This document shows, in pieces, positions 2,879 through 34,015 of a DNA stretch of 35,524 nt (within the stretch, counting starts at the first letter, position 1; the number at the start of each line of letters is the position of its first letter). The notes below the pieces were generated by a model. That model saw nothing but the letters and a program-made list of their open reading frames with translations, made no database searches and was not told the DNA's origin. Position numbers and translations under genes: made by a program. The stretch is from a bacterium. GTDB lineage: Bacteria; UBA9089; CG2-30-40-21; SBAY01. The stretch covers positions 1-35,524 of the forward strand of contig JBFLYA010000011.1 of the NCBI GenBank assembly GCA_040757115.1, given 5' to 3'.

Positions 2879-3649
2879 ATGGCTAAAGTTATTGCTGTTG
2901 CGGGTAAAGGCGGTGTCGGAAAGACAACTATTGCCGGCTTTATAGTCAGATTTCTTAAAGAGCAAAATTGTGTCCCTATTCTGGCTGTTGATGCCGACCC
3001 ATCAATGAATTTGAATATTACTCTTGGCGTAGATGTTCATCGCACCATTGGTGAAATCCGAGAAGAGGCACGACCAGAAATAGGAAAAAGACCTGCTTAT
3101 ATGAGTCTGGCAGAGTATTTTGAACTGGAAGTCAATCTAGCTCTGGTGGAAAGTAATTCCTTTGATTTGTTGACAATAGGCCGCCCTGAGGGAAAAGGAT
3201 GTTATTGTTCCGCAAATAGTAATTTAAGAGATATGCTGAAAAAAATTACCTCAAATTATAAATATGTTGTCATTGACAATGAAGCCGGGATGGAACATAT
3301 CAGCCGACAAACAGATGATAAGGTAGATGTGATGTTGATTATCTCAGACTCATCCCCAAAAGGATTAATCGCCGCAATTAGAACAAATGAATTGATTAGA
3401 AAACTTGAAAACGAGGTTAAGCATACATTCTTTATCATTAATCGAGAGGCAAAAGACCTTCCGTCTAACTTCATTAAAGAGATTGAAAATCATAAACTCC
3501 CCTTTGCCGGCAGTATTCATTTTGACCCTTCCATTTCTGAATATGAAACTGTTGGCAAATCAGTCTTTGACCTCCCAGATGATTCCATCCTCTATCGGGA
3601 CATAAAAGATATTCTTCAAAGAATAAATGAAGTCTGTCACTTCTGGTAA
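2879..3649 (+). CDS. cooC: CooC/AcsF-family nickel-insertion ATPase (CODH/ACS maturation)
   Basis: GKGGVGKTT deviant Walker A, VDADP, GRPEGKGCYC metal-binding motif, DNEAGMEHISR; RBS aggagg upstream. Confidence 0.88.
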   Translation: MAKVIAVAGKGGVGKTTIAGFIVRFLKEQNCVPILAVDADPSMNLNITLGVDVHRTIGEIREEARPEIGKRPAYMSLAEYFELEVNLALVESNSFDLLTIGRPEGKGCYCSANSNLRDMLKKITSNYKYVVIDNEAGMEHISRQTDDKVDVMLIISDSSPKGLIAAIRTNELIRKLENEVKHTFFIINREAKDLPSNFIKEIENHKLPFAGSIHFDPSISEYETVGKSVFDLPDDSILYRDIKDILQRINEVCHFW

Positions 3650-3657
3650 TGAATGCC

Positions 3658-3910
3658 GTAACCGTTCAGGTGGTAATTTACCGCAGAGACGCAGGGGAAC
3701 GGAGAAGACATGGAAATAAATCAGATAAGAGAAAAGATTATTGAGGCACTCATTGCAATACATAGGACATCAAAACCAAATTGTTAATCAATCATGAGAT
3801 GTTGGTCCTCAAAAGCTTGCTCTGAGGAAAATCAGAGATGGAATGAAGCTTATGGTAAATAGTTTTTAATTTTTTCTCTGCGTCTCTGTGTCTCTGCGGT
3901 GAACGGTTAC
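3658..3910 (+). mobile_element. MITE with GTAACCGTTCA/TGAACGGTTAC ends carrying an internally deleted GxxExxY-like gene remnant
   Basis: Perfect 11-bp terminal inverted repeat; subterminal accgcagagacgcag / ctctgcgtctctgtgtctctgcggt; 3710-3787 reads MEINQIREKIIEALIAIHRT..., 3828-3869 reads KIRDGMKLMVNSF*. Confidence 0.8.
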
Positions 3911-3927: not shown

Positions 3928-5151
3928 TTAATAAACAGAAAATGGTTCGATATCTTCACAAACAATATCGCCGGTGATATAATGTAAGAATCTCCCGCCA
4001 AATTCATAGTTACCATGAGGTTCACTACCATTGAGGGTATAACTTAATAATGGTGCTTCAAAATTAGCATTTGCACCAATTGTGACCCCTGGCAGGTTAA
4101 GTATAGATATTAACGAATTATCTGGAAACTTAACCCATACCTTTGCATCAAGGACATCAGCTGTATCATCGTTAGTCACATGGGCGTTAGCAGTTAAGAT
4201 ATTTCCTGTGGTAAAGGTCGCACCGTTTAGAATAATATCCAGTGATAGTGCTTGAGGTGGTGTTGTGCCTGACATAAGGATTGTGCTGTTGCCAATTGAA
4301 GACTCTCCATATCTTATTCTAAACCAACCATCTTCACCCCAGCCTGTTCCCCAGCTATTCTTGCATATCCAATATCCTTCTATGTTGTTGTAACCAACAA
4401 AAGCAATCTGGTGGTATCCTTCAAGAACTCCCCATGAGTATTCATAGACTCCACTCTCGTAGAAAAAGAAATCAGTATATACTGCCATTGTCGTGGATAA
4501 AGGTGTTTGAAATAGTGCCCCGCGGATGCTATCCACATTATTTGTCACCCAATTCCATTGACTAATTTGTGTAACCCTATCTTCCCAATCAGGACAGGTA
4601 TTTGCACAGGGATAATCATTACCATTACCTGAAATATAGGGATAACACGCCTCATCAGGAGTTCCGGAGTCTCTCAGATAATTTGCCGCCGATGAGGGAT
4701 ACCATCCGTAGTCACATAACCCACCACCACAGGAAAACAAGTGTTGTTCTGAAAGGTCAATAGATAGAAGTGGGTTATTTGCTTCGATACGCGCTAAAGG
4801 CTCTAAAGCACCAATCGCCCCAAAGGCAACACAACTTCCACAAGCCCCCTGATTGCGAATAGGGGTCGTCCAGTTATATCCATTTGCATTTCGCCAGTCC
4901 CAGATATCGGGTAAAACCTTTGTAGATTTTACCGTGATTGATGGTTTGGTTTGAGGAACAATTATTGCCCCGCATAACCTTTTTCTTGCCTCTTTAGAGA
5001 GTTTGGAAACATCTGTTTCTCCTGCTGTCCAACTTGTTCCTTTTGACTTGATTGCCTTTTTTATTGCCGATAACTCTGCATCCTGTCCAAAGACTAACTG
5101 ACAGGACAGCATTAATCCTATAACTATACTTGTTATTAACTTTAAATTCAT
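3928..5151 (-). CDS. Secreted papain-family (C1A) cysteine peptidase with short prodomain and C-terminal beta-rich domain
   Basis: N-terminal signal peptide; QGACGSCVAF (catalytic Cys), LSEQHL, GYHQIAFVGY (His), YWICKNSWGTGWGEDGWF (Asn). Confidence 0.92.
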   Translation of the reverse strand: MNLKLITSIVIGLMLSCQLVFGQDAELSAIKKAIKSKGTSWTAGETDVSKLSKEARKRLCGAIIVPQTKPSITVKSTKVLPDIWDWRNANGYNWTTPIRNQGACGSCVAFGAIGALEPLARIEANNPLLSIDLSEQHLFSCGGGLCDYGWYPSSAANYLRDSGTPDEACYPYISGNGNDYPCANTCPDWEDRVTQISQWNWVTNNVDSIRGALFQTPLSTTMAVYTDFFFYESGVYEYSWGVLEGYHQIAFVGYNNIEGYWICKNSWGTGWGEDGWFRIRYGESSIGNSTILMSGTTPPQALSLDIILNGATFTTGNILTANAHVTNDDTADVLDAKVWVKFPDNSLISILNLPGVTIGANANFEAPLLSYTLNGSEPHGNYEFGGRFLHYITGDIVCEDIEPFSVY

Positions 5152-5898: not shown

Positions 5899-6018
5899 CG
5901 GTAATCGGTTATCGGTAATACTGGTTACCGATAACCTGATTACCAAATTTGTAACCGTTCACCGCAGAGACGCAGAGAAAAAAAATAAAAACTCTGTGCT
6001 CCCTGTGTCTGTGTGTGA
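5899..6018. repeat. Heptamer palindrome (ggtaatcggttatcggtaa/ttaccgataacctgattacc) plus partial GTAACCGTTCA element between peptide and maturase
   Basis: Direct reading; gtaaccgttcaccgcagagacgcagag starts at 5951. Confidence 0.75.
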
Positions 6019-9718: not shown

Positions 9719-10097
9719 GTAAGCGTTCAGATAGTAATTCACCGCAGAGACGCAGAGCAACAGAGAAAACATAGAAATAAAGTAACTATTCAGCCACTGA
9801 TTATAGCACTTATTAATCGGTAACCGTTCAGGATATAGCCACAGAGTTACAGAGAACACAGAGGGAATATATAACCAACGAATGAACACAAGTACAAAAA
9901 GATTCGACCTGTGCGGTTAAATGTAAAATGGATAATGTAAAATGTATAACTGAAAGGTAATGAGTCTGGCGAAGGACTAAAATTTCCCATTTTTCATTTC
10001 CTATTTTACATTTATTTTTCCTTTGCGTCTCTGCGATGAATTAGTTTAATCGCACAGGTCGATTTTTTTCTCTGCGTCTTTGTGTCTGTGTGGTGAA
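9719..10097. mobile_element. Stack of nested or partial miniature elements
   Basis: Three GTAA-type left ends (9719 gtaagcgttcag, 9782 gtaactattcagccac, 9820 gtaaccgttcagg); separate element 9904-10062 with ends tcgacctgtgcggttaaa/tttaatcgcacaggtcga (17/18 match); degenerate right end ctctgcgtctttgtgtctgtgtggtgaa. Confidence 0.75.
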
Positions 10098-21185: not shown

Positions 21186-21420
21186 ATGACCGTTCACCGC
21201 AGAAACACAGAGACGCAGAGAAAAAAATTAAAATCTATTCACCAGAGATAGAAATTTCCTTTTTTTGTGCATTTCGGATCTTTCGTTATTTATTAATCTT
21301 TTAATACTTACTTTCGACTAACTGTTTTTAAACCTTTTTAAACACCGAAAAATACAAAAAAAGATATTTTCCTCTCTGTTCCTCTGCGTCTCTGCGGTAA
21401 ATTACCACCTGAACGGTTAC
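21186..21420 (-). mobile_element. GTAACCGTTCA-family MITE with 8-bp target site duplication
   Basis: Ends atgaccgttca (degenerate)/tgaacggttac; gccctaaa at 21178-21185 and 21421-21428; close copy at 25655-25903. Confidence 0.9.
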
Positions 21421-25608: not shown

Positions 25609-26063
25609 GTAACTATTCAGCCACGGATGGACACAGATGAAACACGGAAAATTCGTAACCGTTCACCGCAGAGACGCAGAGACGCAGAGAAAAAATTAAA
25701 ATCTATTCACCAGAGACAAGAAATTTCCTTTTTTTGTGTGCATTTCGGGTCTTTCGTTGTTTATTAATCTTTTAATACTTACTTTTGACTAACTGTTTTT
25801 AAGCCTTTTTAAACAGCGAAAAATGCGAGAAAAATACGAAAAAAAGATATTTTCCTCTCTGTTTCTCTGCGTCTCTGCGGTAAAGGATTACCTGAACGGT
25901 TACGAAAATTCGTAATCCGTGTCCGTTTTCCGTGTCCGTAATCAGGCTTAAGGGTTTTTCTCCTGTTGTCCTCTGCCCTCTGCTCTCTGCCTTCTGCCCT
26001 CTGCCTTCTGTCCTCTGCTATTTATCCGTGCTAATCCGTGTCAACCAGTGGCTGAATAGTTAC
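25609..26063. mobile_element. Outer MITE with GTAACTATTCAGCCAC ends, interrupted by a second MITE
   Basis: Perfect 16-bp inverted repeat gtaactattcagccac/gtggctgaatagttac; interior cacgga/tccgtg repeats and ctctgcc heptamers. Confidence 0.88.
25655..25903 (-). mobile_element. Inner GTAACCGTTCA-family MITE with 8-bp target site duplication
   Basis: Perfect 11-bp inverted ends; gaaaattc at 25647-25654 and 25904-25911. Confidence 0.92.
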
Positions 26064-33778: not shown

Positions 33779-34015
33779 GTAAGCGTTCAGGTGGTGTAAC
33801 AAAAGGAGATGTGGAGATTAAGGAGATAGGGAGATATTATTAAAAAAATTGAAATTAATAGAAATTAATAGAAATTTATGGAAATTTGTTGTTTTCCACA
33901 ATCAATTTCTACCTATTTCTATAAATTTCAATCTATTTCTATTATCTTATCTCCATATCACTCTTATCTCCTTATCCCCTTTCTTACACTTTTGATATAT
34001 AGCCTGAACGGTTAC
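33779..34015. mobile_element. GTAA-family MITE with ggagat/atctcc and tagaaat/atttcta internal inverted arrays
   Basis: Ends gtaagcgttcagg/cctgaacggttac (12/13 match); no target duplication visible. Confidence 0.82.

Follow-up and report, generated by a model that had tools for sequence, protein, structure and literature searches.

The locus considered here raises the question of how a short element without a transposase gene comes to carry the two ends of a protein gene but not its middle. The element occupies positions 3658-3910 of a 35,524-nucleotide stretch of bacterial DNA, referred to below as the window, and is a 253-bp MITE whose terminal inverted repeats (TIRs) are perfect over 11 bp. 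An earlier note on this DNA had proposed that the family of such elements descends from a repeat-flanked GxxExxY gene cassette which was captured between transposon ends, and that this would help to explain how the genes and their repeats spread. The window element is very probably a non-autonomous MITE that arose from a GxxExxY cassette with IS66-type ends and that is moved in trans by an IS66-type transposase. IS66-type MITEs are a known kind of element; the pedigree of this one is unusual and well documented, and in other respects it is an ordinary MITE.

The features of the element, of its surroundings and of the related copies in the window are collected in Table 1. With up to one mismatch, the TIR 11-mer GTAACCGTTCA occurs at 11 sites in the window compared with 0.29 expected from shuffled sequences, and the right TIR together with its neighbouring C reads GTAACCGTTCAC, as it does in the intact insertion sequence of another genome of the same order (G007:C299). 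The subterminal repeat ACCGCAGAGACGCAG is found exactly at 3680-3694 on the plus strand and with one mismatch at 3886-3900 on the minus strand, while up to two mismatches give 11 sites in the window where none is expected. These placements agree with the perfect ends and subterminal repeats that the earlier note had described, and the arrays of the element have a repeat period of 8 nt, not 9. The stretch 3710-3787 translates as MEINQIREKIIEALIAIHRTSKPNC followed by a stop, and 3828-3869 as KIRDGMKLMVNSF, likewise closed by a stop. The 253 bp contain no transposase gene; the ORF on the coding strand is a relic of 25 codons, and a minus-strand ORF of 67 aa (3560-3763) overlaps the element.

Table 1. 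Features of the element at 3658-3910, its flanking genes and related elements in the window
Feature	Position	Strand	Remarks
Flanking ParA/MinD-like ATPase gene	2879..3649	+	stop codon 9 nt before the element
Left TIR	3658..3671	+	11-mer GTAACCGTTCA perfect at 3658-3668; 14 nt GTAACCGTTCAGGT in common with the IS66-family element G000:C198:3061-4623
Cassette leader array	3680..3709	+	three CAGAG-type 8-nt repeat units; ends at the former start codon
N-terminal gene relic	3710..3787	+	GxxExxY codons 1 to about 24 (MEINQIREKIIEALIAIHRT...); closed by TAA; non-coding
Deletion junction	3778..3786	+	matches the 10-bp direct repeat AGGTTTGTTG of the parent gene
Decayed INFNVxVL relic	3787..3810	+	codons near the 3' end of the gene
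22-nt insert	3811..3832	+	not in full-length cassettes; consensus AAAAGCTTGCTCTGATGAAAAT
C-terminal gene relic	3833..3869	+	last 12 or so codons and stop; ..RDGMKLMVNSF, stop, compared with ..RDGIKRIANRF, stop, in the intact gene
Trailer array	3870..3899	+	reverse complement of the leader array
Right TIR	3900..3910	-	TGAACGGTTAC, the exact reverse complement of GTAACCGTTCA
Flanking papain-family protease gene	3928..5151	-	convergent; stop codon 17 nt past the element
Solo family end (TIR, array, A-run)	5951..5990	+	immediately upstream of a radical-SAM/SPASM gene, ORF called from 5996
Truncated copy	9719..9798	+	left end, leader array and first codons (...AACATAGAAATAAA; ATA in place of ATG); other elements interrupt it
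Sister MITE, 25655 type	21186..21420	-	left end degenerate
Sister MITE, same ends and arrays	25655..25903	-	gene remnant consists of the last five codons (LVNRF, stop) only; 8-bp target duplication GAAAATTC
MITE with the same TIR type	33779..34015	+	left end GTAAGCGTTCA; arrays of the GGAGAT type, which also surround another GxxExxY subfamily

The ancestry of the element is recorded in full-length cassettes of the same genome. Two PF13366 cassettes of 472 bp (C25:10206-10677 and C178:12091-12562) have exact GTAACCGTTCA ends, carry leader and trailer arrays as in the window element and both have a TAG at codon 5. According to MAFFT and blastn alignments the element is collinear with these two and with C460 and C34. 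Its positions 1-113 match full-length TIR-bounded cassettes with 87-90% identity (E 9e-37 to 3e-42) and its positions from about 175/180 to 253 with 87.5-88% identity (E 8e-25 to 3e-23); in the case of C178, the two blocks are 90.3% (1-113, E 3e-42) and 88% identical (180-253, E 3e-23). A chance resemblance between element and cassette is rejected at an E value of 3e-42. At the protein level, a pairwise BLASTP comparison of the N-terminal relic with residues 1-24 of an intact GxxExxY protein of the genome matches 16 of 24 positions (E 9e-9 for this single comparison). Protein profiles, namely Pfam PF13366 (E<=10), TIGR04256 and a custom HMM, give no match on the window relics, to which such models are blind. 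The identity of the relics rests on DNA homology and pairwise BLASTP, which together bear out the earlier assignment of the fragments to the first and last residues of a GxxExxY protein.

The way in which the middle of the gene was lost can be read from a 10-mer, AGGTTTGTTG. The 472-bp parent has one copy at position 121 and another at 361, with a spacing of 240 nt (80 codons), and these fall in the codons for GLL/ES and GLL/INF. The miniature form has one copy of the 10-mer (3778-3786) as well as the 22-nt insert, and the lengths add up (472 - 240 + 22 = 254). Residues D67, E77, K79, Q91 and Y95 were covered by the deleted 240 nt, and the relic ORF stops at codon 26, short of the GxxExxY motif (residues 24-30 in the intact protein), the codons of which have decayed. 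The ATG is kept in only 11 of 23 family copies and the stop codons vary among copies, which implies that the relic is not under coding constraint. The window element is a relic of a GxxExxY gene and not a member of that protein family.

The family extends throughout the genome (G000; 4.32 Mb in 462 contigs, 36.8% G+C), which like that of the sister species (G001; 770 contigs) is available as a fragmented assembly. Exact 11-mers number 280 (GTAACCGTTCA) and 321 (TGAACGGTTAC) compared with about 0.9 expected per strand, and a blastn search with the window element as query returns 373 matches, including 54 at full length. The 23 full-length copies with at least 85% identity have a mean pairwise identity of 92% (86-99.6%) and a consensus of 254 nt. 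Transposition is documented by a set of 105 elements, defined as pairs of exact TIRs less than 700 bp apart, 31 of which are flanked by perfect 8-bp target duplications; the controls gave 0 at offsets of 3, 8, 12 and 20 nt and 5 among 10,712 mismatched flank pairs. The same set contains the A-type array in 75 elements, the N-terminal relic in 39 and the C-terminal tail in 65, from which it follows that most of the swarm descends from this GxxExxY cassette. Dozens of copies of this MITE family are also found in G001, where precise empty sites exist for C112:3060-3314, which is of the same size class as the window element (single 8-mer GGAAAAGG), and for C234:17570-17863 of the 294-nt class (single 8-mer AAGAAAAG). 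For three further copies G001 is uninformative, as it has the flanks on different or broken contigs or shares the insertion. Empty sites in G001 together with copies common to both species indicate that the family was active before and after the species split. The 276- and 294-nt classes (C110:1448-1741, C234:17570-17863, C110:4218-4493 and similar) consist of the 254-nt class plus short inserted palindromes, for example GCTTGCC...GGCAAGC and CCTGAT...ATCAGG, which look like tiny secondary insertions.

Within the window, the related copies retain different parts of the ancestral gene (Table 1). The leader with a lost start codon that had been claimed for the copy at 9719 is present, and the tail said to be common to the copies at 21186 and 25655 was recovered in the form of CTGGTGAATAGATTTTAA on the minus strand of both (21186-21420 and 25655-25903). 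The site of the copy at 25655 is occupied in G001 as well and hence yields no polarity. The solo end at 5951-5990 might supply the 5' region of the adjoining radical-SAM/SPASM gene. Many copies in G001 are 99-100% identical to the MITE at 33779-34015, which suggests a very recent burst of this type. The segment 9719-10060 is a nested composite in which the truncated family copy is broken by a GTAACTATTCA end, followed by a GTAACCGTTCA element with CACAGAG arrays and then by a TTCGACCTGTGCG...CGCACAGGTC pair.

The ends of the element are those of IS66-family insertion sequences. The 1563-bp insertion sequence G000:C198:3061-4623 has 14-bp TIRs (GTAACCGTTCAGGT) and a frame comprising DUF6444 and DDE_Tnp_IS66 (PF03050, 1.9e-39), which is broken by two stops, one TAG and one TAA. 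It has no arrays, and the arrays are therefore not part of the terminal site of the transposase. In G007, contig C299 contains a 1505-bp insertion sequence with the 13-bp TIR GTAACCGTTCACA and an intact transposase of 468 aa (DUF6444, zf-IS66 and DDE_Tnp_IS66, 4.5e-39), which shares only 40% identity with the C198 protein, and a third insertion sequence in G008 has the ends GTAACTACTCAGG and an open frame of 541 residues. In the available text of PMC12898284, ISDge4 of the ISBst12 group is described with the ends GTGACTACTCAGCA/GTAACTGCTCAGCA, one transposase of 449 residues and an 8-bp direct repeat; by comparison with that description, the element family has the ISBst12-group traits of an 8-bp duplication and GTAA-type termini. 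Neither G000, which has one two-stop copy and fragments, nor G001, which has one partial copy of a different gene, yielded an intact IS66 transposase with these ends, and repeats are likely to be missing from both fragmented assemblies. A metagenome scan for the C198 transposase returned no close relative. Judged by sequence, an ISBst12-type IS66 transposase, and not another protein, would most likely be what moves the element.

The gene from which the relics derive is itself abundant in the genome, where PF13366 (PDDEXK_3) is matched in 120 places, about 20 of them near full length, and many matches span only profile positions 2-26 or 83/90-117. A custom GxxExxY HMM likewise gives 128 matches (20 full, 16 partial, 55 N-terminal-only and 37 C-terminal-only). 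The studied ends lie within 130 bp of 37 of these, and the remaining 91, many of which are relics, are not near such ends; spread or decay of GxxExxY cassettes is therefore not confined to the ends studied here. Parent genes reach 4e-48 with TIGR04256 and up to 5.9e-46 with PF13366, the former value being that of the intact same-subfamily genes C460 and C34, which have 125 codons and the ends GTAACT[AG]TTCA / TGAATAGTTAC. Intact GxxExxY genes inside the ends under study were looked for, as the earlier note had advised, and found: an uninterrupted 125-codon ORF lies between exact GTAACCGTTCA and TGAACGGTTAC in the sister species (G001:C327), and the 496-bp element G000:C68:24650-25145 holds an ORF of 126 codons, intact and from another subfamily, between IS66-like ends, which in gene orientation read GTAAGGGTTCAGG and CCTGAACGGTTAC and are flanked by the 8-bp target duplication TTATACAC. 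The similar gene-carrying element C430:14892-15402 has the duplication GATAGGTG and one internal TGA. Both C68:24650-25145 and C430:14892-15402 have moved as units, and elements of this type, including that in G001:C327, are mobile insertion cassettes in the sense in which the available text of PMC3129680 uses the term.

The arrays are specific in sequence to each GxxExxY subfamily of the genome and are mirrored on either side of the gene, and at least four subfamilies with differing arrays (CGCAGAGA, GGAGAAG, GGAAAAG and CACGAAGG) are framed here by IS66-like ends of the GTAAC[CT][GA]TTCA type, for which a single accidental capture does not account. The intact GxxExxY protein has the nuclease residues E27, D67, E77, K79, Q91 and Y95. 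Its structural model (pLDDT 94.7) shows weak fold matches to Cas4, lambda exonuclease, the nuclease domains of AddAB/AdnAB and Hjc (best E 6e-4), and a PDB sequence search with the protein returned 0 matches at E<=1.

Other GxxExxY cassettes in the genome are bounded by a second vehicle, the 18-bp inverted repeat TTCGACCTGTGAAATAGG, which is unrelated to the IS66 ends. Five near-identical cassettes of this kind are present in G000 (C256:23588-23971, C437, C133, C386 and C273) along with two internal-deletion derivatives (C187:93-270 and C68:1528-1705), and cassettes and derivatives often adjoin CACAGGTCGAA...TTCGACCTGTG palindromes. A further repeated derivative (G000 C33:1249-1368, C435:16776-16895 and C260:3144-3263) is bounded by GTAACTATTCACC...GGTGAATAGTTAC and comprises some 40 codons from the N-terminal part of one more subfamily, that with CACGAAGG arrays, joined to unrelated GTGAAT-type repeats; it is nested in other MITEs.

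It is proposed that the ancestor of the window element would have been a 472-bp mobile insertion cassette with IS66-type ends, in which a GxxExxY (PD-(D/E)XK, PF13366/TIGR04256) gene was enclosed by inverted 8-nt arrays. An in-frame 240-bp deletion between the 10-bp repeats would have removed all catalytic motifs, a 22-bp insertion would have come next, and the resulting 254-bp product would then have been amplified, with the gene termini persisting as decaying relics. A single-ORF IS66-family (ISBst12-type) DDE transposase would recognise the GTAACCGTTCA(GGT) ends in trans and give rise to the 8-bp target duplications. The reverse order of events, in which the miniature element came first and later received a GxxExxY gene to give the 472-bp form, is hardly credible: it is true that cassettes lie inside several types of outer ends and that elements are often nested, but the miniature form carries codons of both gene ends that join exactly at the direct repeats of the parent, which is the signature of a deletion, and the insertion of a gene could not leave corresponding halves of that gene's coding sequence beyond its own borders. 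This order is rejected on the direct-repeat junction. It is very unlikely, too, that the GxxExxY nuclease itself, as encoded by the intact C460 and C34 genes, mobilises cassettes and miniatures through the arrays or ends and that the likeness to IS66 is secondary. The 8-bp duplications and GTAAC...TCAG ends are of the ISBst12 type, insertion sequences with identical ends exist, that of C198 manages without arrays, and we know of no PD-(D/E)XK nuclease that makes target duplications unaided. These points outweigh the subfamily-specific mirrored arrays, which flank genes across many phyla without IS66 ends, the conserved nuclease residues and weakly nuclease-like model, the five near-identical TTCGACCTGTGAAATAGG-ended cassettes with deletion derivatives of their own, and the lack of an intact IS66 transposase among the sequences of G000.

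A doubtful though possible reading is that GxxExxY cassettes are selfish elements in themselves, which repeatedly lodge inside IS66-type MITEs and use the IS66 transposase for their dispersal. At least four subfamilies share this type of location, and at TTCA/TGAA the ends of the cassette (TTCACC.../...GGTGAA) overlap those of the transposon. If so, the cassette would be a parasite of a parasite, and the retention of the arrays by almost every successful MITE of the genome would be due to an action in cis, either as sites for the nuclease or through a fold-back that favours transposition. A different proposal, which is compatible with the main explanation, concerns the present role of the window copy. 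No target-site duplication is present around 3658-3910, which implies arrival by deletion or recombination rather than simple insertion; the simplest reading is that the copy came with a small deletion or through recombination. At the same site the sister species lacks the element, and between flanks that are 97-98% identical it has 46 bp in its place that include a hairpin and then a T-run, so that the window copy would have replaced a terminator-like hairpin. Synteny at this site is lost in more distant relatives. The unoccupied site (L041, G001:C387, 1252-1300) reads AATAGCGGGAG...CTCCCGCTATTTTTATT between the convergent genes and resembles a bidirectional intrinsic terminator. That the window copy now serves its host between the convergent genes, as a hairpin in RNA or as a terminator, would fit this replacement, the short distances to both stop codons (Table 1) and the predicted end-to-end RNA fold with paired ends (-81.3 kcal/mol, z = -6.0), and is nonetheless improbable. 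A strong fold is to be expected in any case of a sequence with TIRs and mirrored arrays, a simple scan for promoters and terminators over the element found nothing above chance, the only Rfam match is a sub-threshold lncRNA outside the element and not a meaningful one, and copies of the family occupy many contexts.

Several known systems resemble the proposed history in part. In REP/REPIN systems, a small gene (RAYT) is flanked by inverted short repeats and many gene-less repeat derivatives occur genome-wide, which is reminiscent of the repeat-flanked small gene and scattered gene-less derivatives described here. However, REPINs do not generate 8-bp duplications, the flanked gene here belongs to the PD-(D/E)XK fold (PF13366) and is not a Y1/HUH transposase, and mobility is ascribed to the DDE transposase of another element. 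The ORF-bearing intervening sequences of 23S rRNA likewise consist of a compact ORF of about 120 codons inside inverted repeats that are capable of forming a long stem, as are those of the cassettes, whereas the cassettes encode another protein family, are not located in rRNA and show direct evidence of DNA transposition. Eukaryotic MITEs can arise by internal deletion of an autonomous element, as mPing did from Ping. The ends were kept, the middle was deleted and the short form was amplified in both cases, with the difference that the gene deleted here is not the transposase. IS231/MIC231 is an example of mobile insertion cassettes and passenger-carrying insertion sequences. The 459-511-bp parent forms, at least two of which have target duplications, correspond to the mobile insertion cassettes of PMC3129680, as far as its available text describes them, in having IS-type ends and one passenger gene but no transposase. 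They differ in that the passenger is a repeat-bounded cassette which recurs across phyla, and the window element has gone one step further by losing the core of its passenger and becoming a MITE. MITEs of the IS66 family's ISBst12 group, for which ISDge4 (PMC12898284) is the reference insertion sequence, share with the present family the GTAAC...TCAG starts of the TIRs and the 8-bp duplications. Common to both are also a small size, the lack of a transposase, a high copy number and cognate insertion sequences with the same ends. Unlike them, the window element has as its interior the remnant of a passenger cassette rather than of a transposase gene, and 75 of the 105 swarm elements carry the arrays of that cassette.

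A function is not known for the GxxExxY or PDDEXK_3 proteins, which are very widespread. Almost no literature was found under the names GxxExxY, PDDEXK_3 and TIGR04256, and the portions available hold no content on mobility. The locus provides a concrete and datable route by which GxxExxY cassettes spread in one lineage, namely between IS66-type ends, and illustrates that an entire MITE swarm can stem from a passenger cassette rather than from a transposase-bearing insertion sequence. Intact, nonsense-bearing, internally deleted and array-only forms constitute natural material for testing the importance of the arrays, to which occupied and unoccupied sites in the two sister species add.

The capture between IS66-type ends is, on the genomes compared, specific to this lineage. 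In three related genomes (G006, G003 and G008), same-subfamily cassettes have 79-84% DNA identity and the same arrays but lack IS66-type ends. A more distant comparison covered 80 GxxExxY loci from many phyla, where mirrored arrays of the CRCRRAG type (TTCACCRC.../...GYGGTGAA) occur upstream of the gene in 16, downstream in 23 and on both sides in 11, compared with 4 and 3 in the swapped control, and where a GTAACYRTTCA-like end is present at only one locus. A general link between GxxExxY genes and IS66 ends is rejected on this count (1 of 80). The descent from a repeat-flanked cassette captured between transposon ends that the earlier note had put forward is thus supported by the IS66-family nature of the ends, by the three related genomes with cassettes free of them and by their rarity elsewhere; its explanation of how these genes and repeats spread holds for this lineage and does not hold for the movement of GxxExxY cassettes in general. 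The lone IS66-like end among the 80 loci is located at about 1010-1032 of L050, a Syntrophobacteraceae MAG in which the trailer array runs into ...GCGGTGAATGGGTAC, and may be due to chance or to a second capture. In MAGs of other phyla, array-only hairpins accompany intact GxxExxY genes (L064 and L071), and a leader with the first codons is duplicated beside an intact GxxExxY gene (L112), which indicates that gene-less or truncated derivatives also arise outside this lineage.
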